In this document: positions 3,076-45,976 of the stretch, in pieces
How positions within the stretch are numbered: position 1 is the first letter of the stretch
Layout of the letters: each line of letters starts with the position of its first letter
Assembly: GCF_004010195.1 (NCBI RefSeq)
Contig: NC_057749.1
Span: forward strand, 12,739,180 to 12,785,662
DNA from: Chiloscyllium plagiosum
Taxonomy: Eukaryota
DNA: 46,483 nucleotides
Reading direction: 5' to 3'
Notes under the pieces: generated by a model
Told to the model about the DNA's origin: nothing
Seen by the model: the letters and a program-made list of their open reading frames with translations, nothing else
Database searches by the model: none
Translations under genes and position numbers: made by a program

Positions 3076-4310
3076 GCCTATTATCCTAAATCCAGAGGAC
3101 TCTTGGCTTCTTTGGGACCAAATGAACACTGACACATTTGATCCTCAGGTAGGAATCCTGTTCTGTAAATGTTGTTGCTGAAGTCCATCAGTATCTCAAT
3201 GAACATCATTTGCAACTTTCAGGCATCCTGTCATTAACTCATTGATTCCAGGTGCTTTTCTTATTTCATCTTTTGGATCCCAGCTCAGCTGCTGTTAGCT
3301 TTGATCCTTCTCTTTCCTCTGATAGCACCAATTCACTTATGTCTTCATCATCATATAGCTGTCTGGTCTACTCCACTCGTTTTTCTGTATTCTTTTCGAA
3401 ACAAAGTACACTACCTTTGCTACATATACAGCCATTCTTTTAGTTATTCTCTTCCTGTTTGTCAGTGCTTTAACTTTCTCATGTGATACTGTAATGTTTT
3501 GCCTTTTCTCCCGTTTTTCTGTGTTTGTGCAAGCTATATGTTGTTTTTTTTGCCACTTAACATGTTTTTTAAATGCTTTTTATCTGCTTTTCTATTTCAT
3601 CCTATTATTAATTGGATGATTGCCTTTCTGCCACGTTTGGGCTGTACCCATCAATCACATGGCTGTTCTTACTTCTTAGTAAGTCCTCTTAATCTCTGTT
3701 CTTATTTACAGTCAAGATCTCCACAGCGGACCCAGCTGTTCCTACATCATTACTCCTATTTATTAGATTCCATAGCTGGTGAGTTTCCTACTCTTCCAAG
3801 GTGATTTGTTCATAAGAGGTATGGTTCTACCCTGGCTGTGCTACACATTTGCAGTGACATTGACTCTGTGTTGTGAGATCTTCTATCTTGACTACTGGTC
3901 CAGCTTTTATACAGGATAACATCCCTTGTATCCGTATTTGTGAGTTTGCTTTTCCCTCTCATTTAGTCTACACACAAGTTGTGGTCCCAGGGATTGCGCA
4001 ACATACTTCCAGCTCCTTGGAGGTACAAACAAGAGGTTCATTGCAATAGAGACCTGACATCCTTGATCATTCCTATGCTAATAGAGTATAAGGGGATTAG
4101 TCCTAATACTAGACCATACATATCCAAAGTTGGACATGTACTTGAAGATGAATTTGCAGGATAATTGGGCAAAATGTAGACTAGATTTGACAGATTTTTC
4201 AAAGAGCCAGCATGGCAGACAGGAGAAATGGCTTTCTTTGTACTGTAAAGTTTTAATTCAGAGTCCAGGTGTGAGAGAAAATAGTTCTGAGGGATTGTCA
4301 CTAATGTTAT
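3076..4310 (-). mobile_element. Possible highly decayed LTR/ERV-like remnant
   Basis: Strong purine skew on the minus strand, TATAAAAG at 3904-3911, and a downstream MG-start (MGTAQTWQKG, 3651) reminiscent of myristoylated Gag. No diagnostic domain seen. Confidence 0.25.
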
Positions 4311-4715
4311 TACTATAGAATGTCAGTCTGCAAGTTGTGCCATATCAGCAAAAATACAAAGAGTTAATATAAAAATAATAGTGACAAAACGTTTGTCGAA
4401 ACATATCTTTCTTCTTTTTATCTCCTTAAAAATGCTGGTGCAGAAGAAATATTTAAATTACTGGATACACTTCTTTCCATTTGATGTCTGTTTCCGGTGG
4501 GAAAACTAGAGTGTTCAACTAAGATGAGTAACAATATGAGCACAGGAAAGAAATATCTTTTTGGAGATTAGTAATAAACAAAGGAGGTTTTCCATAAACT
4601 AATTGAATAATGCACGTCAATCGAAATGAATCTCTACAAACTCACTGAAATGCAGACTCTCTTCAATCAGGTGGAAGTGTTGCTGAGCACACCAAAGAAT
4701 ATTTTTGAGGAGCTA

Positions 4716-4730
4716 CTGCCCTCCAGTGGA
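4716..4730 (-). promoter_or_regulatory. Candidate CTCF motif
   Basis: Minus strand CCACTGGAGGGCAG, one mismatch to CCACYAGRKGGCAG, in unique sequence. Confidence 0.3.
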
Positions 4731-4869
4731 ATTGCTGAATAATGTTTCAAACAAGGTCTGATTTCCATTCCACACAGTCTAAATTAATACAAGAATTACA
4801 ACTCTTTTGGAGAGAATAATCATTTGAATCAAAACTAAATTGAAAATCTAAACTAAAGCAGCCAATACA

Positions 4870-5078
4870 TGATACTCATCTACAAGATGCACTGCAGAAA
4901 TTTGCTAAGGCTCCTTAGATAGCATCGTCCAAACCCATAATCACTACCATTTAGAAGGACAAGGGCAGATGATATATGGGAACATTTGCAAGTTCCCCTC
5001 CAAGCCACTCATCATCCTGACTTGGAAACATATCACTGTTCTGTCAATGTCACCGGATCATAATCCTGGAATTCCCTC
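4870..5078 (+). mobile_element. 3' end of CR1/L2-group LINE (family of 27030-29926), left part
   Basis: Matches 29610-29810 (agaaggacaagggcag...ctgacttggaaa.atatcac). Continues at 12692 after the Gypsy insertion. Confidence 0.8.
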
Positions 5079-5204
5079 TGAAATAACTCCACAGAGGCCA
5101 GTGTCCTGTCATCAAGTCGCACTTTGTTTACAAATGGAGAGTTCTTGATACTGATCCAACTCCCTGAGCCACCTCTCAGAGTGAACAGGATGTCTGAGAC
5201 TCCT

Positions 5205-7986
5205 TTATTTTTCTTTTATTACCCCCACACTACCACCTAACTGTGATAGTGCTTATATTTTCCCACTCACCCATGTTGTGTGTGTGCAGGAGTGAGACAC
5301 AGTGAAAGACGCAAAGTGTACAAATCTTTATTCAATTTCCACCACCAAGAAGAAAGGAAACACCCAAGTGGCCAGTAACAAGCAGTGCACTTCTCATCAA
5401 AGGGCAATGCTGTGTGGTCAAACAGTGATGGGGATGCCAGGGATTAAATCAAAATAGAATTGGAGGGGGAAATAATACACTCCACTCCCTTAGGTGCCCA
5501 CCTCTCCCTGAACTGCTCAAGGGTGGATACCACGTGCTCCCTCTCTGAAGACACCTGGGCTCTAACATAACTGCCGAAGGAGGGCAGGCAATCGGCACTA
5601 ATGACCCCCTCCACGGCCCGTTGCCTGGACCTGTTTATGGCCAGTTTGGCCAGGTCCAGGGGTAGACTCACGCGGAGGTCCTCTGACCTGCCCTCCCCCT
5701 CTGCACCGGGTGCATCCAGAAGCAGAGAAGGTTTTTAAGAAAATCAAAAAGGGAGTGCAAGAACCCACATCCAATATATATATGGCTAACAGACTCCACA
5801 GCACCACAGAACAAGCAGTTGGGCTGGGAGTCTGTGAACCACCGCAATCTGCATCCTGAACCCGATGCCTGCAGAGTCCCGAGCAGATATTCGTGACCGA
5901 CTGTGTCGAACGCCTTCTCCTGGTTGAGAGGCAGGGAGGCGCTTGGCAGACCAGCCCGTCAACAGAAATGGATCAGGTCCCGGACCAGGTGGACGTTATC
6001 ATATATCCTCTGGCCCGCGACCGTGTAGGATGGGTCTGGGTGAATCATGTGGGCCAGCACAGAAGCCAGGCGAGAAGACAACACCCTGGCAAAGATTTTG
6101 CAGTCCGTGCTGAGGAGGGAGTCCAGGCGGAGACTCCAATTCTTTTTCCCTTTTTTCCCATTACCCCCACACTACTGCCTAACTGCGGTAGTGCCTTTTT
6201 AACCCCGCACCATGTTGTGTGTGTGCAGGTGTGGGACACAGTGAAAGACGCAAGGTGCATAAATCTTTATTCAGTTTCCACCACCAGGAAGAAAGGAAAC
6301 ACCCGAGTGGCCAGTGACAAGCAGTGCCCTTCTCATCAAAGGGCAATGCTGCGAGATCAAACAGTGAACAGGGGTTAAATCAAAATAGAATTGGACGGGA
6401 AAATAATGCACTCCATTCCCTGCGGCGCCCATCTCTCCCTGAACTACTCCAGGGTGTTGGTGGACACTGCGTGCTCCTTTTCCAGAGGCACCCGGGCTCT
6501 AACGTAACCGCGGAAGAAGGGCAGGCAGTCGGCCCTATTGACCCCCTCCATGGCCCGCTGCCTGGACCTGTTTATGGCCAGTTTGGCCAGGCCCAGGAGC
6601 AGAGAGACTCCTATTCTTTTTTTTTCTTGGGCAATGCTGTGTGATCACACTCCCCTTTTTTTTTAAACCCCCACACTACCACCTAACTGCGGTAGTGCTT
6701 ATTTTTTCCCCAAGGCTCCTGTTTATTTTTTTCTCTCCTTTCTTTATTTAACCCCCACACTACCGCCTAACCGCAGTAGTGCTTATTTTTTTTCCCAGCA
6801 CCCATGGTGTGTGTGTGCAGGTGTGAGACACAGCGAAAGACACAAAGTGCACGAATCTTTATTGAATTTCCACCACCAGGAAGATAGGAAAACACCCGGG
6901 TGGCCAGTGACAAACACTGCCCTTCACATCAAAGGGCAGTGCTGTGTGATCAAAACAGTGAGGGGGGAGGGTAGGGACTAAATCAAAATAGAGTAGGAGG
7001 GAGAAATGATGCACTCCACTCCCTGCGGCACCCACCTCTCCCTGAACAACTCCAGGGTGTTGGTCGACACCGCGTGCTCCTTCTCCAAGGACACCCGGGC
7101 TCTAACGTAACCGCGGAAGAGGGGCAGGCAGTCGGCCCTAATGACCCCCTCCACGGCCCGCTGCCTGGACCTGTTTATGGCCAGTTTAGCCAGACTCCTA
7201 TTCTTTTTTTTCTTCTTGCTTTTTATTTATTTATTTTTTTCTTTTTTTAAATTTTAACCCCACACTACCACCTAAGTGCGGTAGTGCTTATTTTTTTCCC
7301 CCAGCACCCATGGTGTGTGTGTGCAGGGGTGAGACACACCCTCACAATAGGCAAACACCCGGGTGGCCAGTGACAAACACTGCCCTTCACATGAAAGGGC
7401 AGTGCTGTATGATCAAAACAGTGAAGGGGAGGGGAGGGACTAAATCAGAATAGAGTTGGAGGGAGCAGACTCCTATTCTTTTTTTTCTCATTTTTTTCTT
7501 TTTTACATGGTCCACGGACTCCACAGCGCCACAAAACAAGCAGTTGGGCTGGGAGTCCATGAACCACCGCAACACTCCTGTTTATTTTTTCTTTTTTTTT
7601 CAGCACCCATGGTGTGTGTGTGCAGGTGTGAGACACAGTGAAAGACACAAAGTGCACCAATCTTTATTCAAATTCCACCACCAGGAAGATAGGAAAACAC
7701 CCGGGTGGAAGACTCCTATTCTTTTTTTTTTGCGTGTTAAAGTAGAATTGAACCCCAGTCCCTGGTGCTGTGAGGTAGCATTGCTAACTACTGACCCACT
7801 GTGCCATCCCGACATGGTGGTTTTTTTTTTCTTTTAAAACCCCCACACTACCACCTAAGTGCGGTAGTGCTTATTTTTTTTCCCCAGCACCCATGGTGTG
7901 TATGTGAATCTCCTGTTTATTTATTTATTTATTTATTTTTTCCTTTTTTTCTTCTTTTTTATCCCCAGCACCCATGGTGTGTGTGA
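5205..7986 (-). mobile_element. Tandem array of about 11 5'-truncated Tx1-clade (L1 group) non-LTR pieces inside the Gypsy LTR
   Basis: RT motifs on the minus strand at 5880-6120 (LLSTDCKIFARVLSSRL..IHPD..QEKAFD), zinc-knuckle CLFCGAVESVDHV, C-terminus FRERWAPKGVECIISPSNSILI*, repeated 3' UTR and poly(A) tails, and a recurring junction AGACTCCTATTC. Confidence 0.88.
7745..7810 (-). mobile_element. Isolated tRNA-derived head of HE1-type SINE with poly(A), within the Tx1 array
   Basis: Minus strand gggatggcacagtgggtcagtagttagcaatgctacctcacagcaccagggactggggttcaattc has A and B boxes and matches the SINE head at 19749. Confidence 0.8.
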
Positions 7987-9454
7987 AGACTCCTATTCTT
8001 ATCTGTCAGCTGGGGCTCCCTGATTGGGCCAGATTAACAGCCCCATTCAGGGACCTCCTATTCTATCAGGTCCACCTGACTAGACTCAGAGTGGGAGAGA
8101 TGTAAGTAGTGACTGAAACGAGATCAAAGACGTAGGCCGTTTTTGGTTGTTGCAGCTCCTTCTGTTGCATTTTTGTACCAGGTCAGGTCCCTTCAACTCT
8201 ACCTCTGATATGGGCAGCATTTAGTGCACAGTAACTCCCCTCTTGTGCCCAGAGCTTCTCGGAACACATTCAGTTTCCTCTTCAGGCAGAGATAGCAACA
8301 TCTACCATGTCCATCTTAGGTTCCATGGTAATTTCAAGGCTTGATGAAGAGAGAAAATCCAAGGGTTCCGGAACAGTGTGAGTTTGCAGCGTTCATATGA
8401 TCCACGTTTTGTTCAGGACTGTCTCAGCTAATTGAACTGTATACATCACTGGACCTGACCTCAAGTTGGCCATGCCCCTTACTTACCCATGCAGGGTCAT
8501 TTCCATAGTTTCTACACCAAACCTCAGCCCCTGAAGTAAAGTGTCTCTCTTGCTTAGCGGAGTCATGTGTATGGCATCAGTGTTCCTGATGCTGTTTCAC
8601 CTCCCCCCCACCCCCACCCCCCACCACACGTTAGGGAAGATCAGATTTAACCTTGTGCGAAGTCTTCTTCCCCTTATCAACTCTGCTGGAACTATCTGTG
8701 TCGGTGTATGAGTGGTGGTTCTACAATCAAATAGGCATCAGGACAAAAACAGAAATTATTGGAAAAGCTCAGAACATTTGGCAGCATTTATGGAGAGAAA
8801 TCAGTTAATTTTTAGGTCGAGTGACCCTTCCTCATAAGCCAGTTGTTTTGGTTTTTATATAGGAACTGGGCCAGTATGGTATCTAATGAAATTGTAGGCT
8901 TTTTTATAAGCCTTCAAAGTTTGCACTAATCTTTCTGCCATGTCATTGGATGATGGATGGTATGGTGCTGTTCTGAAATATCATTCAACTTTAGGATATA
9001 CAGAAATTCCCTGCTGGTAAACAGTCACCCATTATCTGTGGCCAACACTTCTGGGAGTGTTGAAAAAGATGTATGCAGTTTTTCTATCATCGTCCCCATG
9101 TTTGACAAATGAACGCCAGCATGACTATGCACGTCCAGCCACCTTGAGTGGGCATCCACAATGACTGAGAACATTGAGTGCATGGAAGGACCAGCATAGT
9201 CAAATGTGTAATGGAGTCTAGGGTTTACCCAGCCATGAATGTGGGGGAGCTGTTGGCAGTAATTTTTGTCCTTGTTGACACTCTGTGCACTGCTCCACCA
9301 GCATAGCCATGTCTACATACAATCCTGACTACCAGACATAACATATTGCCAAGTTATTCATTTTGGAAACATCTGAATGACCCTGATAGAGTTCAGTCCG
9401 TATCTGGCAGTGACCTTTGCTTGGTACAATCATTCTTGCTTCCCAAAATATCAG

Positions 9455-9790
9455 AGAGAATCCCTATAGTGTGGAAGTAGGCCAATCCACCCACCGAGTC
9501 CCTCTGACCCTCTGAAGAGCATCCAAACCAGACTCACCCCCTCTAAACCTGTAACTGTTCATTTCCCATGGTTAATCCACCTAACCTACATATCCTTGTA
9601 CAAAATGGGCAATTTAGCATGGACAATCCACCTAAACACATCTTTAGACTGTGGGAGAAAACCAGACCAACTGGAGGAAACCTATGCAGACACATGCAGA
9701 ATGTGCAAACTCCACAGAGACAGTCAACCAAAGGTGGAATCAAGCCTAGGTCCCTGGAACTATGAGCCATCACGTCATTCCTGCTGTCCT
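9455..9790 (-). mobile_element. HE1-type tRNA-derived SINE
   Basis: gggcaatttagcatgg...agaatgtgcaaactccacagagacagtc core shared with the other copies. Confidence 0.85.
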
Positions 9791-10058
9791 TACTGTGATC
9801 TGGTCTCTCCAAGTCTGAAAAGGGTTCATTTCTGGTTGGGGCGTTCCTTTGGTTTCCCCATCACCACCAGCTGTTTTAGTTTTGTCAGGAACAGATCTTT
9901 CTGCATCCAAAGTCTGATATTGTCAGCTGTGACTGTAAGTGGTCCAGAAAATTTATAACTATTTCGGACTCTTCCAGTGGTTATAATACTGCTGGTGTTT
10001 CTGCAGGCAGGAGGCAGCTCAATGCATCGTATTTGCTACTTGGCCTCCCAGACAGTGT

Positions 10059-10304
10059 GGAGAAAGTGAGGACTGCAGATGCTGGAGATCAGAGCTGAAA
10101 ATGTGTTGCTAGAAAAGCACAGCAGGTCAGGCAGCATCCAAGGAGCAGAAGAATCGATGTTTCGGGCATGAACCCTTCTTCAGCAGAGAAGCTTTTGAAG
10201 AAGCTCTCTTCCTCCCTGAAGAAGGGCTCATGCCCGAAACGTCGATTCTCCTGCTCCTTGGATGTTGCCGGACCTGCTGTGTTTTTTCAGCAACACATTT
10301 TCAG
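10059..10304. mobile_element. Palindromic Penelope-derived element with hammerhead cores
   Basis: 14-bp TSD ctcccagacagtgt (10045-10058, 10305-10318). Inverted arms. CTGAAGAAGGGCTCATGCCCGAAACGTC. Confidence 0.85.
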
Positions 10305-11322
10305 CTCCCAGACAGTGTTCCAACTTGTAATTATATGTATTAGTATTACAGCCCACCAGTGAATTTGGACCGAAGCTATGGAAGGCACTGTCTTGTCCTC
10401 TTTAAATAGACCGAGTAGGAGGTTGTGGTCCGTTATTATTAAAAAATTTATATCTGTAAAAGTTATTGGTGGAATTTCCTGCCTCCAAATATGAGTGACA
10501 AATCATCCTTCTCTTTCTGGGTGTGTTTACACTCTGCATTAGCTGAAGTCCTGGGTGTATGTGCTATTCCGCATTCATCTCCACAAAGATGAACTGACCC
10601 ATCGGGTTTCACAATCAGTACAACTGGTGCTGCCCATTCCACAAACTGGGCTGGTTTGATGATTCCTTAGCTTTCCAGCCTTCTGATTTCTACCTCAACT
10701 TTTGCCCTTGAGGCAAACAGCACTTGGCAGGCCTTGCAAAGTCAAAGAATTGCTTCCTGGTCAATATGCAAGGTGGCCTTGGCTCATTCAATAGTCCCTA
10801 GACCTTCTTGAAAATCTTCCAGGTATTTAATTAGAACTTCACTCAAGCAGCCATATTCTAATTTAAAATATTGAGCTAGTCTAAGTGAATCTTTCTCAGC
10901 CATTTTTGCCCCATCAAGCTTCTTACTACACTCAGTGGTAACTGAACCAACTGCTTCTCATAAGAGACTGATACTGAAGATGTACCCTTAATCTATAAAG
11001 GTTCCCAGGTGTAGGTTGTCAGTCTAGCCAAGGTCTTGCACAAAATTAAGAGTTGGAGTCCAGAGCAAATTTTGTTACAGACTGATTCTGCAAACACTGA
11101 AACTATTGCGCTGGCATCGACCTCTATTTGAACCAGGTGACCATTTAGCCAGATCTTGGTCCTGAATTGGATGTTGCTAAGCAATTTAACTGTTCCAAAC
11201 CAGATGCAGGTGGACTTTCCAGAATGTGCCCTCTCCTTGATACTGACCTATGAGTTCTCTTACTCAGTTTAGGTCGAGTGGGACTCTTCTGCTGTCTTGA
11301 GTCGACCCAACAGCAGCAATTA

Positions 11323-11409: not shown

Positions 11410-12282
11410 CAGCAGCAATTACAATGGCTTGCCAGCCTGGATCCTGAAGACACCATTAATCATTTGGCTGAGGCTTGGCTTTGTTTTGGGGTTTTGCTGT
11501 GGGCTGACCGAGTCCCTTTGTTCAAGATATGTTCTGAGTGAGGCTGTGCAATTTCCTTCACGCAGCTGGTGTTCCCCAAGCTCCATTGGACCTGCGAGGG
11601 TGTCCACTTCCATCGAAATACACTGCAACTCATATGGCCCACTTGCCGCATTTTCCCAATGATAAAACCAGTTGTAGTGCTTGCTTGAAGTCCAGTTGGT
11701 CTTCGGCTAGTGGGCACTTTTGCATGCTTACCTCATTAATCCCACATACCAAACAGTTTCTCAGCATCTCACTAAGGGTTAAACCAAAGTCACATGCCTC
11801 TGCCAGTCATCATAACCTAGTCAAAAGTCTGATATAGATTCCCCTGGTTCTCAAATTGCCGAGTAAAACTGATAGCATTTCAGAATTAGAAGAGGCTTCG
11901 GATCCTAATACTCCTGAACTAAATCCATCAACATTTGAAAAGTTTTAATATCTTGTGCCTCAGAGAAAGTTAGGCTCCTAATAACCAAAAAAGCTGTGAG
12001 GAGAATTACTTGTTGCTTTTCATCTACCCCAATGTTATTTGCCTCGAATAATATAACACATCCTTTCCACATACTGGGCCCAGTCTTCAACAGCTGGATT
12101 GAAAACATCAAGCTTCCCAAACAATGACATGATGCCAGAAGTGCTTACCCCAACTCAAAGGCAACTGTTACAAGCAAATTTCCAGCTCTGAGAGAGAGAA
12201 CAGGATGTCTGTCACTGTTGTTCCTGTCTATCAGCCAGGGCTCCCTAAGTGGACCAGATTAACAGCCCCAGTCAGGGAACTC

Positions 12283-12650
12283 ATAGAGTCATAGAGATGT
12301 ACTGCACAGAAACAGACCCTTCGGTCCAACTTGTCCATTCTGACCAGATATTCCAACCCAATCTATTCCCTCCTGCCAGCACCTGGCCCATATCCCTCCA
12401 AATCCTTCCTATTCAGATAAACATCCAGATGCCTTTTAAATGTTGTAATTGTACCAGCCTCCACCACTTCCTATGGCAGCTCAATCCATACACGTACCAC
12501 ACTCTGAATGAAAGAGTTGCCTCTTTTATATCTTTCCCCTCTCACCTTAAACCTATGCCCTCTAGTTCTGGACTCCCTCACCCCAGGGAAAAGACTTTGT
12601 CTATTTATCCTATCTATGCCCCTCATAATTTTATAAACCTCTATAAGGTC
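12283..12650 (-). mobile_element. CR1/HER1-type LINE 3' end inserted in the Gypsy 5' LTR
   Basis: Tail catagagtcatagag. Reverse complement of 39530-39910. Confidence 0.9.
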
Positions 12651-12691
12651 ATATTCTAGTTAACCTAGGTAACCTTGTTACAATCACGACA

Positions 12692-19720: not shown

Positions 19721-19748
19721 TATGGATGGATAAAAACAAACATATTTG

Positions 19749-20062
19749 GATGGCACAGTAGCTGAGTAGTTAGCACTGCTGCCTCACAGTGTCAGGGACC
19801 CAGGTTCGAGTCCAGCCTCAGGCTACTATCTGTGTGGAGTTTGCACATTCTCCCCATGTCTGCGTGGGTTTTCTTTGGGTGTTCCGGTTTCCTCCCACGT
19901 GATAAATTGCCTCATGTTGTTCAGGAATGTGAAGGTCAGGGGTATTAATCAGGGGTAAATGTAGAATAATAGGGCAGGAGAATGGGTTTTGGTGAGATAC
20001 TCTTCAGAGGGTCAGTGTGGACCTATTGGGCTGAATGGCCTGTTTCCACACTGTAGGGATTC
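19749..20062 (+). mobile_element. HE1-type SINE
   Basis: A box tggcacagtagc, B box ggttcgagtcc, core gtggagtttgcacattctcccc, and CR1-like tail cctgtttccacactgtagggattct. Confidence 0.9.
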
Positions 20063-21444: not shown

Positions 21445-21725
21445 AGATTAGATTCCCTACAGTGTGGAAATAGGCTCTTCAGCCCAAACTGATCCACCAA
21501 AGAGTAACCCACCCAGACCCATTTCCCTCTGACTAATGCACCTAACACTATTGGCAATTTAGCATGGCCAATTCACCTGGCCTTTGCATCTTTGGACTAT
21601 GGGAGGAAACCCATGCAGACACAGGAAGAATGTGCAAACTCCACACAGATAGTTCCCCAAGGCTGGAATCGAACCTGGGACCCTGGTGCAGTGAGGCAGT
21701 AGTATTAACCACTGAGTCACCATGC
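21445..21725 (-). mobile_element. HE1-type SINE
   Basis: Reverse complement of the 19749 copy. Confidence 0.9.
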
Positions 21726-29926: not shown

Positions 29927-30243
29927 ATTAGATTAGATTACTTACAGTGTGGAAACAGGCCCTTTGGCCCAACAAGTCCACACCGACCCGCCGAAGCACA
30001 ACCCACCCAGACCCCATTCTCCTACATTTACCCCTACATCTAACACTACGGGCAATTTAGCATGGCCAATTCACCTGACCTGCACATCTTTGGACTGTGG
30101 GAGAAAATCAGAGCACCCGGAGGAAACCCACGCAGACACAGGGAGAATGTGCAAACTCCACACAATCGCCTGAGGCGGGAATTGAACCCAGGTCTCTGGC
30201 GCTGTGAGGCAGCAGTGCTAATCACTGTGCCACGGTGCCGCCC
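29927..30243 (-). mobile_element. HE1-type SINE, young
   Basis: (attag)n tail, intact core, CpGs retained. Confidence 0.92.
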
Positions 30244-38119: not shown

Positions 38120-39910
38120 GCAAGAACTTTCGAAAGCTGATTGGGGGCAGATGATCACAGGTAAAGGGATGGCTGGAAAATGGGAAGCCTTCAGAAATGA
38201 GATAACGAGAATCCAGAGAAAGTATATTCCTGTCAGGGTGAAAGGGAAGGCTGGTATGTATAGGGAATGCTGATGACTAAAGAAATTGAGGGTTTGGTTA
38301 AGAAAAAGAAGGGAGCATATGTAAGGTATAGACAGGATAGATCGAGTGAATCCTTAGAAGAATATAAAGGCAGTAGGAGTATACTGAAGAGGGAAATCAG
38401 GAGGGCAAAAAGGGGATGTGAGATAATTTTGGCAAATAAAATTAAGGAGAATCCAAAGGGTTTTTATAAATACGTTAAGGACAAAAGGGTAACTAGGGAG
38501 AAAATAGGGCCCCTTGAAGATCAGCAAAGTGGCCTTTGTGTGGAGCTGCTGAAAATGGGGGAGATACTAAATGAATATTTTGCATCAGTATTTACTGTGG
38601 TAAAGGATATGGAAGACATAGACTGTAGGGAAATAGATGGTGACATCTTGAAAAATGTCTTGCTGAGATATTTGTATAATCGATAGTCACAGGTGAGGTG
38701 CCGGAAGACCAGAGGTTGGCAAACGTGGTGCCACTGTTTAAGAAGGTGGTAAAGACAAGCCAGGGAACTGTAGACCAGTGAGCACGACGAGTTGTTGGAG
38801 GGAATCCTGAGGGACAGGATGTACTTGTATTTGGAAAGGCAAGGACTGATTAGGGATAGTCAACATGGTTTTGTGCATGGGAAATCATGTCTCACAAACT
38901 TAATTGAGTTTTTTGAGGAAATAACAAAGAAGATTGATGAGGACAGAGCAATAGATGTGATCTATATGGACTTCAGTAAGGCATTCGACAAGGTTCCCCA
39001 TGGGAGACTGATTAGCAAGGTTAGATCTCATGGAATACAGGGAGAACAAGCCATTTGGATACAGAACTGGCTCAAAGGTAGAAGACAGAGGGTGGTGGNN
39101 NNNNNNNNNNNNNNNNNNNNNNNNNNNNNNNNNNNNNNNNNNNNNNNNNNNNNNNNNNNNNNNNNNNNNNNNNNNNNNNNNNNNNNNNNNNNNNNNNNNN
39201 NNNNNNNNNNNNNNNNNNNNNNNNNNNNNNNNNNNNNNNNNNNNNNNNNNNNNNNNNNNNNNNNNNNNNNNNNNNNNNNNNNNNNNNNNNNNNNNNNNNN
39301 NNNNNNNNNNNNNNNNNNNNNNNNNNNNNNNNNNNNNNNNNNNNNNNNNNNNNNNNNNNNNNNNNNNNNNNNNNNNNNNNNNNNNNTCCTTCCTATCGGA
39401 AAGATGTTGTGAAACTTGAAAGGGTTCAGAAAAGATTTATGAGGATATTGCCAGGGTTGGAGGATTTGAGCTATAGGGAGAGGCTGAACAGGCTGGGGCT
39501 GTGCTACCTGGAGCATCGGAGGCTGAGGGGTGACCTTATAGAGGTTTACAAAATTATGAGGGGCATGGATAGGGTAAATAGGCAAAGTCGGACTCCCTTG
39601 GGGTCGGGGAGTCCAGAACTAGAGGGCATAGGTTTAGGGTGAGAGGGGAAAGATATAAAAGAGACCTACAGGGCAACCTTTTCACACAGAGTGTGGTACG
39701 TGGAATGAGCTGCCAGGGGAAGTGGTGGAGGCTGGTACAATTGCAACATTTAAGAGGCATCTGGATGGGTGTATGAATAGGAAGGGTTTGGAGAGATATG
39801 GGCCGCGTGCTGGCAGGTGAGACTAGATTGGGTTGGGATATCTGGTCAGCATGGACGAGTTGGACTGAAGGGTCTGTTTCCATGCTATACATCTCTATGA
39901 CTCTATGACT
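38120..39910 (+). mobile_element. CR1/HER1-type LINE ORF2, with assembly gap
   Basis: SQHGFVHGKSCLTNLIEFFEE..DVIYMDFSKAFDKVPH. Tail ctctatgactctatgactc. Confidence 0.95.
39099..39386. other. Assembly gap (N run); second gap at 40976-41006
   Basis: Runs of n. Confidence 1.
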
Positions 39911-40794
39911 CATTGCATGCAATCTTTTAGCCACAGTGCTTCACAATAAACCGAGTAGGGTTATGATGGTCTGTGTTTGGCAAATTAGGTTGAAAATTGG
40001 TTGACAAACACTTTATCCATCTTAATGATTGTACTTTCTTCTAAGCACCCTGCTTTTCCTTTATTATATCCATCTGTGGTCAAGATGCTGTATGTTCAGG
40101 GACTCCAGTCCCCGTGCTACCGTAAAATAAGTGCGAGGATGGCATGATGCACACTTTCCTTGCATCTGGTACGAATTAGTTTAGCTTTCCAGTAGTGACA
40201 GTTAATAACCTTAACTAGTGGGAGGAAAGATTTCCTCATGTCTTATCTGACAAAATTGGAAATCTGTTACAAAGAGGCAGTCTATAGTTTGGTTGAATAT
40301 ATCATGGAAAATAAATCTACCCATAAGAAACATCTCAAGCAATGTTTTTCCTGTTATGTTCCTCCAGAGCTAATTTTCAGTTTTATTCTTGAAATAAACA
40401 TGCTTCATTTAAAAAATACAGTTTCCTATGTAATTTTAGCAGTAATAACATTATGAGAACAGAATAACCCACCAACTCATAAAATTGTTACAAGTAGCAG
40501 CTATTTGACACATTGTGTTTGCACTGGTTCTCCAAGTGAGCATTTCATTTAGTGCCACTCTCTTGCTTTTCCTCATAACCCTGTAATTGTTCCTTTTTCC
40601 GATAGCAATCTAGTTCCCTTTTTAAAGCCTCAATTGAAGTTGCCTCCACACACTCACAAGTAATAAATTGTAGGCCTTATTTGCTATGTGATAAAAGTTT
40701 TTCTAATGTCATTTTTGCTTTTTTTTTTAACCAATTATTTTAAATCTCTGCCATCCCTGATCCCTCACGAATTTGAATACTTATATATGGACTT

Positions 40795-42070
40795 AACAAA
40801 ATAGGAACAGTTCGCCCCTCAGCCATTTCCGCCATTCAATGTGATGATTAGATTAGATTCAATTCCCTACAGTATGGAAACAGGCCTTTCAGCCCAACAA
40901 GTCCACACCGACCCTTTGAGGAGAAAGTGAGGTCTGCAGATGCTGGAGATCAGAGCTGAAAATGTGTTGCTGGAANNNNNNNNNNNNNNNNNNNNNNNNN
41001 NNNNNNCCTCCCCCAAGTCCCTCCTCCCTACCTTTTATCTTTGCCTGCTGGACACACTTTCCTCGTTCCTGAAGAAGGGCTTATGCCCGAAACGTCGATT
41101 CTCCTGTTCCCTGGATGCTGCATGACCTGCTGCGCTTTTCCAGCAACACATTTTCACACCGACCCTTTGAAGAGTAAGCCACCCAGACCCATTCCCCCCT
41201 GACTAATGCACCTCGCACTACGAGCAATTTAGCATGGCCAATTCACCTGACCTACACATCTTTGGATTGTGGGAGGAAATCCACACAGAGGGTCACCTGA
41301 GGCTGGAATCGGACCTGGGTCCCTGTCGCTGTGAGGCAGCTGTGCTAACCACTGAGCTACTGATCTTTTTCTATGTTGGCTGATCGGTTTCTGTTTTGAA
41401 TTCTACATTATTAATTACCTCCAAAAGCTTTTCATTCCCTTGTCTGATAAGAATCTACTTCACTTTGACTTAAGTATGTTCAACCCCATTTCCATAACCA
41501 CCTGAGGCAATGACTTCCAAAATCATACAATCCTCCAAGAGAAAATCTTCCTCCTCATCTCTGTCCTAAAACAGTGAGTCCTAATTTTACACAGTACCCT
41601 GTAGTCTGAACTAACCCATAGAATAAATATCCTTTCCGTGTCCAAGGCTGTCCAGGATATTATACACTTCAGTCAAGTCAGCCCTTACTCTAAATTTCAG
41701 TGAAAACAAGCCCAATCTGTCCAACCTTTCCTCATTAGACAACCAACTCATTCCAGGTGTCAGTCTAGTAAAACTCCCGTGAACCATCTCCAATGCATTT
41801 ACATCCCTCTTTAAATAAAAAAGATCTAAATTGCACACACAGTGTTCAAGGTGTGGTCTCAGGAATGGTTGTACAACTGAAGCAAAACATTCTTACCACC
41901 CCAATGGTTCAACTCTTTTCCTAGTAAAAGGATGGCATGTCATTAGCCTTCTTAATTATTTGCAGCACCTACTTAACTTTCTGCAACTCACGCACAGAAT
42001 ATCTAGATCTGTCATCACCTCGGAATTCTACAACAGCTCTCCAGTAAAGGAACACCCTGCTTTTTCATGC
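40795..42070 (-). mobile_element. CR1 LINE 3' part, interrupted by a SINE
   Basis: LKRDVNALEMVHGSFTRLTPGM..EERLDRLGLFSL. Confidence 0.85.
40847..41362 (-). mobile_element. HE1-type SINE carrying a palindromic PLE-derived insertion (40920-41154)
   Basis: SINE core. 16-bp TSD cacaccgaccctttga (40904-40919, 41155-41170). Confidence 0.88.
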
Positions 42071-42340: not shown

Positions 42341-43629
42341 AGTTCCATAGGTTTGTAAACTGTGATGGAAACTATCAGGAAAAGGAAGGAATCCAGTACT
42401 GACCTCTCAGGGACTCCACTACATACCTGTTAGAATTATGAAAAAAATCCATTTACCCTATTACTCAGTTTCCTCTCACTCAGCCAATTCTGTATTCAGG
42501 TTGCTCCTGTCCTTTTATTTCATCTACTATAATTTTGCTTGCAAATCTGTCATGAGACACTATTAAATGTCTTTTGGAAGTCCATGTACAAGATAGCATG
42601 TCCTCATTAACCCTCTTGGTTAATCTTCAGAAAACTCCAGCAAGTTAGTTCGACATGTTTTTCGTTTAATGTAACAATGCTGGCCTCCCATAGTTAATCT
42701 CCATTTGTCCACATGACTATTAATTTTGTCTTGAATTATTGTTTTTACTTGAATGCACGAATATTAACTTCAAAGAAGGAAAGAGCACACATTAAGCCAG
42801 ATGAGTAACTAACAAACTGATTAAAGAAAATCCTAATCATTGGTTTTGAATGGGAAAGATCAATTCCTATTCTATAATCATAGACTTTTTCTAAATGTGT
42901 GGAAGTCGTAAGACGTACCTCTGCGGCCGTCATATCCTGAGGTTGGAGTTGAACTCAGACCTTCTGACCAAGAATTAGGGACACTATCATTGTAACTCAA
43001 GACCCTCACCAGCTATCTCTGAAGATTGTCCAACAACAAAATTTGCTGATTATTTTTTCTTATATTTTCTAAATTCACCTCCATTTTTGATTAAGTAACT
43101 TAAGTTCTGCATGATATCTAAAATCTAGTAATCCTAGTTTTATATTTACTGGTGGTCCATTTTATATTGAAAATCAGAAGTGAGGCTTTTATTATCAATA
43201 TAGAAAGTCTCTTCACCACACACACACCAAGGATGTTTCAAAGTGGATGATTTACAAACAGGATGTAATGTCCACTTGCTTTGTTTTTCTGAAGTCTTGT
43301 AATCTAATTTGAGTCAGTAACTCTCTAACCAACAGATGGATTTAAAAGGCAATTTTATTATTCTTGGAACAGAAGAGAGTGGTGCATTTCTTCATTCAGA
43401 AATATGAGGTTGGGGGAGCATTCCCATGGGTGAATGACAAACTAACTTCCCACGTTCAGGATTAAGTAGGCAGCCATTAAGGGAATGATGATAATGATTG
43501 AGGACTACATTAGAACTCCACAGAGGCTGGTCTCCTGTCAATAAGTCACCTTTTATTTACATATGATAGTACTTGATACTGGTCTGGCTTCCTCAGAGCC
43601 AGCTCTCAGAATAAGCAGAACCTCTGACT

Positions 43630-43642
43630 CTCCTGTTTATAT
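43630..43642 (-). promoter_or_regulatory. TATA box of Gypsy LTR (ATATAAACAGGAG); AATAAA about 80 nt downstream
   Basis: Minus-strand TATAAA followed by AATAAA near 43552-43557, the usual LTR order. Confidence 0.6.
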
Positions 43643-44254
43643 CCGTCAGCTAGGGTTCCCTGACTGGACCAGGTTAACAGCCCCAATCAGGGAACTTATA
43701 TGCTATGAGGTCCACCAGGCTGACCTTGTTTCAATCACCAGATCCCTCCCCCAACAAGTCTAGGGACGTGGGCCTATTCTTTTTCTTGTAGCATCTCCTG
43801 GGTATTTTTGCACTGGATCTGGTCCCTCCAAATAAGCCTTGGATGTGGGCAATGTGTACTGGACTGTAGCCTGCCTGTTGTACCTGGAGCATCTCGGAAG
43901 AAATTCATCCTCTTCTTCAGGTGGTAAAGGCATCAAGGCTGCAATATCCACTGTGTTTATCTCAGACTCAAGCTTCTTCGACACTCGGAGGGGGCGAACT
44001 CACGGGTTCTGACAGCCTTTCCAGCTGTTCCGAGGGGCCGGGTACATTTTGCTCCTCCCCAATTTGAGAGTTGTGGTGCACGTACTTATTCAGGACCGCC
44101 TCACCTACCAGAACTTTGTACATCATGGGACCTGACCACATGTCGACCATGCAGGGCCATTTCCATGGTTTCAGCATCAATCTCTAACTCACTTAGAGGG
44201 GTCTTGTGTCAGCATTGGTGTTCCCATTGCCGTCTCAGCTGTCCCCCCAGCCAT

Positions 44255-44585
44255 TAGGGGTGATGATGCCCTAGTGGAATTATTGCTGGACTGTTAATCC
44301 AGAGATCCAATTAAGTTTCAGATCCCACCATGGCAAATGGTGGAATTTGAATTCAATTTAAAAATAATCTGGAATTGAGAGTCTAATGTTGCATCCATTG
44401 TCAATTGTCAGAAAAACCCATTTGGGTCACTAACATCCTTTAGGGAAGGAAACTGCCATCCTTACCTGCTCTGGCCTACACGTGACTCCAGACCCTCAGC
44501 AATGTGGTTGACTCTTAACTACCCTCTGGGCAATTAGGGATAAGCAATAAATGCTGGCCTAGCCAGCGACATCCTGAACCTGTGA
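44255..44585 (+). mobile_element. tRNA-derived SINE whose tail matches the CR1/L2-group LINE
   Basis: Tail gggataagcaataaatgctggcctagccagc matches the LINE 3' end at 29880-29910. Confidence 0.8.
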
Positions 44586-45976
44586 ATATGTGGGAGCTCC
44601 TGGCAATAGCTTTTGCCCTGTTGGCACTCTGGGCATTGCCCTATCAACACAGCTATATCTGCATTCAATCCTGGCCACCAGGCATAATGTCTCACCAACA
44701 TCTTTATTTTGGACACCCCAGGATGACCCTAGTGGAGTTCAGACAGTATTTGGCAGCAACCTTTGCTCAGGACAATCACTCTTGCTGCCTAGATTAAAAT
44801 GCCATCCTCTGTGGTGATCTGGTCTTACCAGGTCCAGGAAAGATTTTAATTTCTGGTTATGATGCACTTTTATTTCCCCAACACCACCAGCTGTTTTAGT
44901 TTTGCCAGGACCGGAACTTTTTGTCCCCAGTTTGATATTGTCAGCAGTCACCTGGAAGATTAAAACCAGAATGGATTGTTCCAGTGGCAGCACTACCAGT
45001 GATGTATCTGTCAGTGGGAGGCGGCTCAAAGCACTTGCTATTTGGCTTCCCAGGTAGTGTTCCAACTTGTACACCCTTAGGATGAGAGCCCACCGCTGAA
45101 CTAGACCTGAAGCTAAGGGCAACACATCCTTGTCTACTGTGAGTAGCCCTAGCAGGGGTTTTGGTCTGTTATTATTACAGTATTGATGGAATTTTGTCAC
45201 ACCAAAGATGAATGCCAAACCTTTCTTCTCTATCTGGGTGTATTTGTGCTCTGCATCAGACAAAGACCAGAAAGCATACACGGCTGGTTGTTCCTCTCCA
45301 TTGGGCCATTGCTCCAATACCATGCAGAGAGAGACACACCGCATGTCAGCCCAGATCTCGCTTGGGATCATAGTGAGTCACCACTTTATTGATTGACTTG
45401 TTGTTGTCACATGTACAGAAACACTGTGAAAAGTATTGTTTTGCATGCTATTTGGCAGATTGTACCATACAAAGTGCTTCAAGGTAGCAGAACAAAATGT
45501 AGGGATACAGTGTTACAGCCACTGAGAAGGTGCAGAGCGAGAGATTAGAATTAACATTTGAGAGGTACATTCAAAAGTCTGATAACAGCGAGGAACAAGC
45601 TATTCTTAAATTGATGATGGCTGCTTTTTCACTTCCTTAAAGGCTACATCTTGGCTATGAGACCATTTCCAAGGCTGACCCATTTTCAATTGCAGTTGTA
45701 AGGGTGTCAAGATGGAGCTCAGGTTACATATTAACTTTCTATTATAATTCACCAATCCACGAAAAGTACCTAGGCTCCGGTACAGATGTGGGAGCCAGGG
45801 CACCTTTGATTGCCTCACTTTATCTTCCTAGGGGTGTAACCCAGTCTTGTTGATTCTGTAGTCCAAGTAGGTTACTTGGGGTGTGTGGAACACAATTTGT
45901 TCCCTTCTAAGGCATATGCCCATCATGGAGAAATGTCAAGTTCTCCAAGTGCTCTTTATTGGTCTTCCCTGTAATT

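Follow-up and report, generated by a model that had tools for sequence, protein, structure and literature searches.

A stack of truncated LINE insertions at one site of a Gypsy-like terminal region in Chiloscyllium plagiosum

Anatomy of the insertion array

The window analysed here is a single stretch of 46,483 bases (Chiloscyllium plagiosum, contig NC_057749.1) with one occupied locus, where fragments of a long interspersed nuclear element (LINE) interrupt the terminal region of a decayed Gypsy-like element. The fragments form an array of six units (U1 to U6) bounded by copies of a 12-mer, AGACTCCTATTC, and made of 11 pieces that are A-tailed, 5′-truncated and on the minus strand throughout. 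We think it likely that an L1-superfamily LINE, most probably a Tx1-like one, stacked at a defined site of this terminal region. The short interspersed nuclear element (SINE) and LINE repeats of the window are of a kind that we take to be known from sharks. We mapped the array by placing every stretch on the longest unit and reading the junctions directly. On the plus strand, a unit consists of a 12-mer, a T-rich run and a distinct truncation point that abuts the next 12-mer. The locus reads as follows, from left to right:

5085–5196, minus strand: left part of the host terminal region, a putative long terminal repeat (LTR), up to the target; 76.2% match to 43514–43634
5197–5208, no strand: leftmost copy of the target-site duplication (TSD), decayed to AGACTCCTTTAT; read directly, it extends the left flank
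5209–6130, minus strand: U1, with reverse transcriptase (RT) motifs 1–3, knuckle, end of the second open reading frame (ORF2), 3′ untranslated region (UTR) and A-rich tail, from translation
6131–6142, no strand: TSD copy with one mismatch, AGACTCCAATTC
6143–6604, minus strand: U2, the 3′ 440 nt of the LINE and its tail; 5′ junction at an AGACTC microhomology
6605–7191, minus strand: U3, with exact 12-mer, piece 3a (6628–6656), piece 3b (6668–6711), AAGG filler, a foreign 11-mer (6716–6726) and piece 3c (6750–7191)
7192–7466, minus strand: U4, with exact 12-mer, 52-nt T-rich tail and the LINE 3′ end (7204–7466) with an internal deletion
7467–7709, minus strand: U5, with exact 12-mer, piece 5a (7505–7572, ORF2 knuckle region), a foreign 11-mer (7575–7585) and piece 5b (7602–7709)
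7710–7986, minus strand: U6, with exact 12-mer, T10, a SINE head (7732–7820), piece 6b (7839–7906), a foreign 11-mer (7910–7920) and piece 6c (7963–7986)
7987–7998, no strand: rightmost TSD copy, the only one still preceding host ATCTGTCAG, that is, the only complete target
7999–10542, minus strand: right terminal region (as far as about 8076), followed by decayed integrase and RNase H regions of Gypsy-like type; colinear with 43630–45259

The initial annotation of this stretch had estimated about 11 pieces and about six successive events. Our counts of 11 pieces and six units match these figures, with the qualification that one piece is a SINE head. It had also considered that the units might be tandem duplicates with identical breakpoints; we discarded a simple tandem duplication, given that every unit has its own length and breakpoints. 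Five joins, within U3, U5 and U6, lack a 12-mer, and some 5′ joins show short microhomologies, such as the LINE's own AGACTC at the U2 join. By self-comparison, no copy of the array LINE lies outside 5196–7998, in the remaining ~43.7 kb of the window.

The SINE-head piece (7732–7820) has its match in the tRNA-like heads of SINEs at other places in the window; ARAGORN found no tRNA in it. With its A10 it directly abuts a 12-mer, which suggests that targeting resides in the machinery and not in the LINE RNA. The piece holds the SINE head only, followed by CTACTTTAACACGC and A10. Long-bodied copies of tRNA-headed SINEs are found at 19732–19807 (plus strand) and at 21666–21715, 30179–30239 and 41306–41362 (minus strand).

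Two further details concern the pieces themselves. The tail of 3c (6727–6749) holds CTCTCCTTTCTTTAT, a second target-like stretch that may have been left by a poly(A)-only insertion. Pieces 5b (7602) and 6c (7963), each of which comes after a foreign 11-mer, end in the sense direction at the LINE's internal A-run, upstream of its 3′ stem-loop, as if priming or polyadenylation had occurred at that A-run.

The target site and its host

Exact copies of the 12-mer in the window are limited to 6605, 7192, 7467, 7710 and 7987. These five copies compare with 0.01 expected, and none of 100 shuffles reached five. Allowing up to two mismatches adds only the copy at 6131 (AGACTCCAATTC, one mismatch); the resulting count of six is matched by 26 of 100 shuffles and is thus not significant alone. 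The copy at 5197, AGACTCCTTTAT, has three mismatches and is continuous with the left flank. A run of T8 to T10 directly follows each of the five internal 12-mers, and the rightmost one (7987) is followed by TTATCTGTCAG, which is host sequence. Three other regions of the window bear on the target:

43514–43740, minus strand: uninterrupted copy of the terminal region, with an empty target CTCCTGTTTAT^ATCCGTCAG at 43630–43649
44537–45377, minus strand: Ty3/Gypsy-type pol remnants (RT_RNaseH at 44742–45377, Integrase_H2C2 at 44537–44728)
12182–12285, minus strand: third, partial copy of the target region, unoccupied, with a diverged target TCACTGTTGTTC

Comparing the window with itself, the left flank (5085–5204) matches 43514–43634 over 122 positions, at the identity given above, and the right flank (7990–8076) matches 43630–43716 at 82.8% over 87. 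The two matches share five bases on the uninterrupted copy (43514–43716), an overlap expected from a TSD. The duplication starts at the same A of AGAC in 6 of 6 5′ junctions, and the truncation points are all different. Repeated insertion at the same site, with a fixed TSD of 12–14 bp, is well supported. We considered the 12-mer as a part of the LINE and rejected this, since it is continuous with the host flanks and abuts variable truncation points as well as the SINE piece. Several proposals of the initial annotation thereby hold: the positions of the five exact 12-mers and of the decayed ones at 5197 and 6131, the rejoining of the two LTR halves into the sequence of the uninterrupted copy, and, on its question of whether the 12-mer might belong to the element, the host origin of a sequence that has its homologue in that copy.

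The host element carries matches to the Pfam families RT_RNaseH (E 1.3e-9) and Integrase_H2C2 (E 1.5e-11), in the Ty3/Gypsy order on the minus strand. Pfam detected no integrase core in these remnants, and a search of PDB with the RNase H piece gave 0 matches. The interrupted copy is colinear with the pol-bearing element over 7990–10542, and the homology stops at a shared left boundary (5085 and 43514), which places the target ~120 bp from the 3′ end of the Gypsy-like element. The target lies within its last ~230 bp, downstream of the RNase H and integrase remnants. These ~230 bp are probably an LTR, a reading that fits the G-rich tract just upstream of the terminal region (near 43740–43745) and the AATAAA on the minus strand near 43552–43558, ~75 nt downstream of the site in sense. 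The term 'Gypsy LTR' used in the initial annotation is plausible in view of this terminal position; the 5′ ends of the host copies fall beyond the window or have decayed.

In the partial copy, the 20 target bases (12200–12230) are far more diverged from the interrupted copy than their surroundings, which are ~83% alike. This copy adjoins, at 12285, a repeat (12285–12656, plus strand) of which a second copy lies at 39557–39940 on the minus strand; both have open frames reading ...VIEMY..ETDPSVQLVH.... A decayed, internally deleted stretch at 3718–3790 holds an unoccupied CTCCTATTTAT at 3753 and may represent one more, heavily degraded copy of the LTR region.

The array also contains a second version of the site. 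Three of the five joins without a 12-mer (6716, 7575 and 7910) carry CTCCTGTTTAT and a T-rich tail, with AGG, ACA or AAT on the upstream side. Elsewhere in the window this 11-mer is found once, at 43630, the homologous site of the uninterrupted copy, where ATCCGTCAG follows. Both versions are covered by the degenerate site CTCCTRTTYWT, which occurs 10 times in the window against 0.37 expected: in the five right-hand TSD copies (6608, 7195, 7470, 7713 and 7990), the three foreign copies, the empty site, and a tenth time at 3753. In both versions the T-tail begins where the host ATC would stand, so that the cut was most likely made at ...T^ATC. The initial annotation had placed the nick after CCTATTC, restoring the target only on the right. 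The one-sided restoration stands; the cut falls more likely after ...CCTATTCTT, before ATC. The foreign 11-mer might have been a randomly decayed 12-mer, an option that we rejected because its three copies are identical and equal the version of the other LTR copy. The sequence suggests that the junctions of the foreign version formed at other LTR copies and were then carried here, and the identity of CTCCTGTTTAT with the site of another copy suggests that the donors lie in the same LTR family. We prefer read-through transcripts of similar arrays to template jumping as their route, because read-through would explain a stretch of exactly TSD length between two pieces.

Foreign site versions within a repetitive region could also arise during assembly, if reads from many LTR–LINE junctions were collapsed or chained into a false array. 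This is highly improbable. Length and breakpoints vary from unit to unit, and at 78–96% similarity the units are unlike the near-identical repeats that are prone to collapse; the two outer flanks follow one decayed Gypsy-like element colinearly. Sequencing runs from two studies of organism A each contain 0.46–0.50 of the words sampled from positions 4300–8900, a comparison that neither locates the words nor sees their structure.

Identity of the inserted LINE

In the sense direction, U1 encodes RT motifs 1–3 (6129–5868) joined straight to a C-terminal CCHC knuckle, which indicates an internal deletion. ORF2 ends near 5444 and is followed by a 3′ UTR of ~235 nt and the A-rich tail. The knuckle, CLFCGAVESVSHIYIGC (C-x2-C-x7-H-x4-C), recurs in piece 5a; the Pfam family zf-RVT gave no match on the window's own knuckle piece. 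RVT_1 matches U1 with E 0.0059 and 16.8 bits, below the cut-off of 29.6. A phmmer search with the RT fragment of U1, in which one stop was read through as X, returned 3300 relatives at E≤0.001 and 280 at E≤1e-10, the best named ones being from a sea turtle (57%) and the whale shark (70%). Among seven relatives scanned for domains, six have both Exo_endo_phos, the apurinic endonuclease (APE) type, and RVT_1, and four have zf-RVT. Human L1 ORF2p aligns colinearly with the relative P0007 along 865 residues (E 2e-76). Judged from the domains of these relatives and from this colinearity, the array pieces are those of an L1-superfamily LINE (APE, RT and CCHC knuckle). An A-rich tail, variable 5′ truncation and a TSD are all present in the array units. 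A word-index protein search with the C-terminal piece retrieved one chimeric gene model (P0001), and with the RT piece no match; patterns of the LINE 3′ end gave 0 matches in each of two metagenome scans.

The affinity to Tx1 is likely, with the endonuclease loop of a relative as a proxy. The RT fragment is 59% identical (54/92) to the sturgeon protein P0152 and scores ~21 bits against human L1 ORF2p. The endonuclease of P0152 has its best PDB match in 2v0r, 'LTX', at 81.1 bits versus 59.0 for native L1 endonuclease (L1-EN); for P0007 the scores are 65.4 and 54.2 bits, respectively. According to the excerpts of PMC1950540 used here, LTX is L1-EN with a grafted hairpin loop of Tx1L. The loop reads TRVREGRVSQS in P0152 and VRVRDGHVSQS in the Tx1L graft. 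Neither the source and cluster names of the RT relatives, nor the Atlas, nor a search with the whale shark protein P0003 yielded a clade label. The earlier assignment to the Tx1 clade is supported indirectly, by the loop of the nearest relative that bears an endonuclease, that of the window element itself not being preserved.

The LINE 3′ end forms, a few bases before the A-tail, a stem of 10 bp with a loop of 6 nt. Its copies (5228–5256, 6166–6194, 6754–6782, 7259–7287 and 7842–7870, minus strand) have folding z-scores of −3.9 to −4.7 in four of five, with 0 of 200 shuffles as good; the U2 copy folds less well (z −1.3). Between copies, one position of the stem is altered on both sides. Pieces without the 3′ stem were nonetheless inserted. 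Another non-LTR RT, unrelated to the array LINE, lies at 38264–39409 on the plus strand (RVT_1, E 1.7e-9) and is interrupted by a run of N (39099–39386); a second such run lies at 40976–41006.

Growth of the array and related systems

Decay of the 12-mer is confined to the two leftmost copies (5197 and 6131). Over the 12 columns in which at least two units have CG, U1 kept the dinucleotide in 5/12, U2 in 11/12 and U3c (the 3c piece of U3) in 10/12. U1 and U2 are 86.3% identical (82.6% when mapped onto U1), and the right-hand units are 89.5–95.6% alike. One set of subfamily characters is common to U1 and U2, and others to U3c, U4, U5b and U6b. By these sequence measures U1 is clearly the oldest unit, and growth of the array from left to right is partly supported. 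The initial annotation had proposed a polarised array built by about six successive events. Its polarity is partly upheld by the age of U1 and the decay of the two left 12-mers, with the order of U2 and U3c not resolvable; its number agrees with the six units, six being only an upper bound on local events because some units may be ready-made composites.

Composite templates did exist, as three inner junctions have a non-local TSD version and two have none. One or two long composite transcripts from arrays elsewhere might accordingly have brought most units together with their 12-mers, in which case the array would not be a local chronological record. We regard this as unlikely, given that the inner 12-mers agree with the local version of both outer flanks and not with the foreign one, that U1 is markedly older by its CpG decay (5/12 versus 10–11/12), and that U1/U2 share subfamily characters distinct from those of U3c/U4/U5b/U6b. 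The local 12-mers, the age of U1 and the subfamily split point to two separate events at the least, and probably to more.

The window itself shows how the array is built, that the TSD boundaries are fixed and the truncation points distinct, what the LINE and the Gypsy-like element are, and that a foreign site version is present. From this we infer where the cuts fall, how specific the endonuclease is, which way the array grew and how composites arose. The LINE endonuclease would cut the plus strand at ...CTCCT(A/G)TT(C/T)(T/A)T^ATC(T/C)GTCAG in the ~230-bp terminal region, and the T-ending 3′ OH would prime reverse transcription on the poly(A) tail. With the second strand cut a fixed 12–14 bp upstream, the insertion would become flanked by AGACTCCTATTC(TT). 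The copy on the element's 5′ side, right in the window, alone would keep ATCTGTCAG; the next insertion would then land there and the array would grow rightward. Up to six events would have stacked in this way, and several of the inserted RNAs would be composites. The composites could stem either from template switching of the RT, involving the SINE-head RNA and the 3′-shortened LINE fragments, or from insertion of a transcript that read through a similar array at another LTR copy; the latter route would account for the three inner junctions with the TSD version of that copy.

L1-type elements tend to insert into existing A-tails. Since the cut site is T-rich and followed by A, and T8 to T10 follow every inner 12-mer, a non-specific L1-like element might have inserted once at random and later nicked the T-tract/A boundaries of earlier tails, the 12-mer being propagated as part of long TSDs. 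Such a hot spot is decidedly unlikely. The left boundary of the duplication is identical in 6/6 cases, while non-specific L1 TSDs vary in length. The hot spot also predicts that units become younger toward the left, contrary to the decay pattern, offers no account of three junctions that have the version of another LTR copy and the same cut position, and is at odds with the lack of dispersed LINE copies in the other 43.7 kb of the window.

Several observations weigh against stacking by a site-specific Tx1-like LINE. Target specificity is deduced from a single occupied locus, and the cut site, TTCTT^AT, is close to what L1-type endonucleases generally prefer, a T-rich stretch before A. The uninterrupted copy bears, at 43630, the very site version of the foreign junctions and yet is unoccupied; the partial copy at 12182–12285 is likewise empty. 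All copies of the array LINE are 5′-truncated and the endonuclease region is absent, and a Tx1L-like loop is confined to P0152 among the 17 long relatives from which a loop could be extracted. The LINE itself contains CCTGTTTAT, which equals 9/11 of the foreign bases and slightly weakens the argument from the foreign site. If composites can carry TSDs, some of the inner 12-mers could be imports too. Private differences are nearly equal (30 in U1, 24 in U2 and 27 in U3c, of 416), so that the age gradient rests on the CpG decay of U1, the subfamily characters and the decay of the 12-mers. Even so, we consider stacking at a defined site the likely explanation.

A more tentative extension, possible though doubtful, is that arrays lying in separate LTR copies undergo co-transcription, possibly driven by the LTR promoter, and are re-inserted as composites with the TSD of the donor as a barcode. 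Co-transcription would fit the common orientation of LINE and LTR and the position of the site ~75 nt upstream of the AATAAA of the LTR.

L1 chimeric retrocopies consist of different RNAs joined head-to-tail in one insertion. The array is similar to these chimeras and to R2 template jumping in its head-to-tail RNA joins with 2–4 extra bases, and differs from both in that its chains lie at a fixed target and three templates carry 11 target-derived bases past the A-tail. Site-specific LINEs of the R1, R2, Utopia and Keno type are another point of comparison, and the tails of several of them are not poly(A). For R2 template jumping, PMC4494074 cites Bibillo and Eickbush 2004. Like the array LINE, R1 and R2 in ribosomal DNA and Utopia and Keno in U2 genes (PMC4640811) are site-specific and use a multicopy target, and Utopia-1_NVit occasionally inserts in tandem in the same target; unlike it, they target host RNA genes, and in R2 and Utopia the endonuclease is of the restriction-like type.

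Target specificity is found in many elements of the Tx1 clade (Kojima 2015, PMC4494074). Tx1L of Xenopus laevis sits in Tx1D (PMC1950540, PMC4494074) and, like the array LINE, has its target inside another transposon. Its endonuclease is APE-type and sequence-specific, with a loop similar to that of P0152. The target of Tx1L is a piggyBac-type DNA transposon, whereas here it is a probable LTR, and the endonuclease of the window element is not preserved. The closest systems, in crocodilians, are Tx1-8_Crp, Tx1-4_AMi and Tx1-Mar/SINEU-3, with Tx1 LINEs that insert preferentially in specific LTR retrotransposons or in one Mariner family; tandem SINEU-3 copies sandwiching the TSD are explained by insertions made one after another, and trans-mobilisation brings SINEU RNAs to the same target (PMC4494074). 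The initial annotation knew of no described Tx1 family at a Gypsy LTR; Tx1 families that target LTR retrotransposons are published. Our literature search found no description of this particular LINE family. The array shares with the crocodilian systems an LTR retrotransposon as target, a trans-mobilised RNA and tandems sandwiching the TSD. It differs in its host, which has shark-like repeats, in its deeper stack (six units, 11 pieces) and in inner junctions that carry the TSD version of another target copy. The target here is a Gypsy-like terminal region of ~230 bp. The array is thus another case of a known behaviour of site-specific Tx1 elements, with an unusually deep stack.

A defined target of 20 bp and its endonuclease would be of practical interest for programmable insertion, as are L1-EN and the endonuclease of Tx1L (PMC1950540). 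If the foreign TSD versions are barcodes of their donors, the source copies would be traceable, and if arrays are co-transcribed, the traffic from donor to recipient LTRs would become readable, and relative time could be taken from the unit order. The locus displays the rules of targeting in one place: a fixed cut on both strands, restoration of the target on one side and passengers mobilised in trans. It would add a cartilaginous-fish-like case to the short list of APE-type LINEs that use another transposon as a safe landing site.

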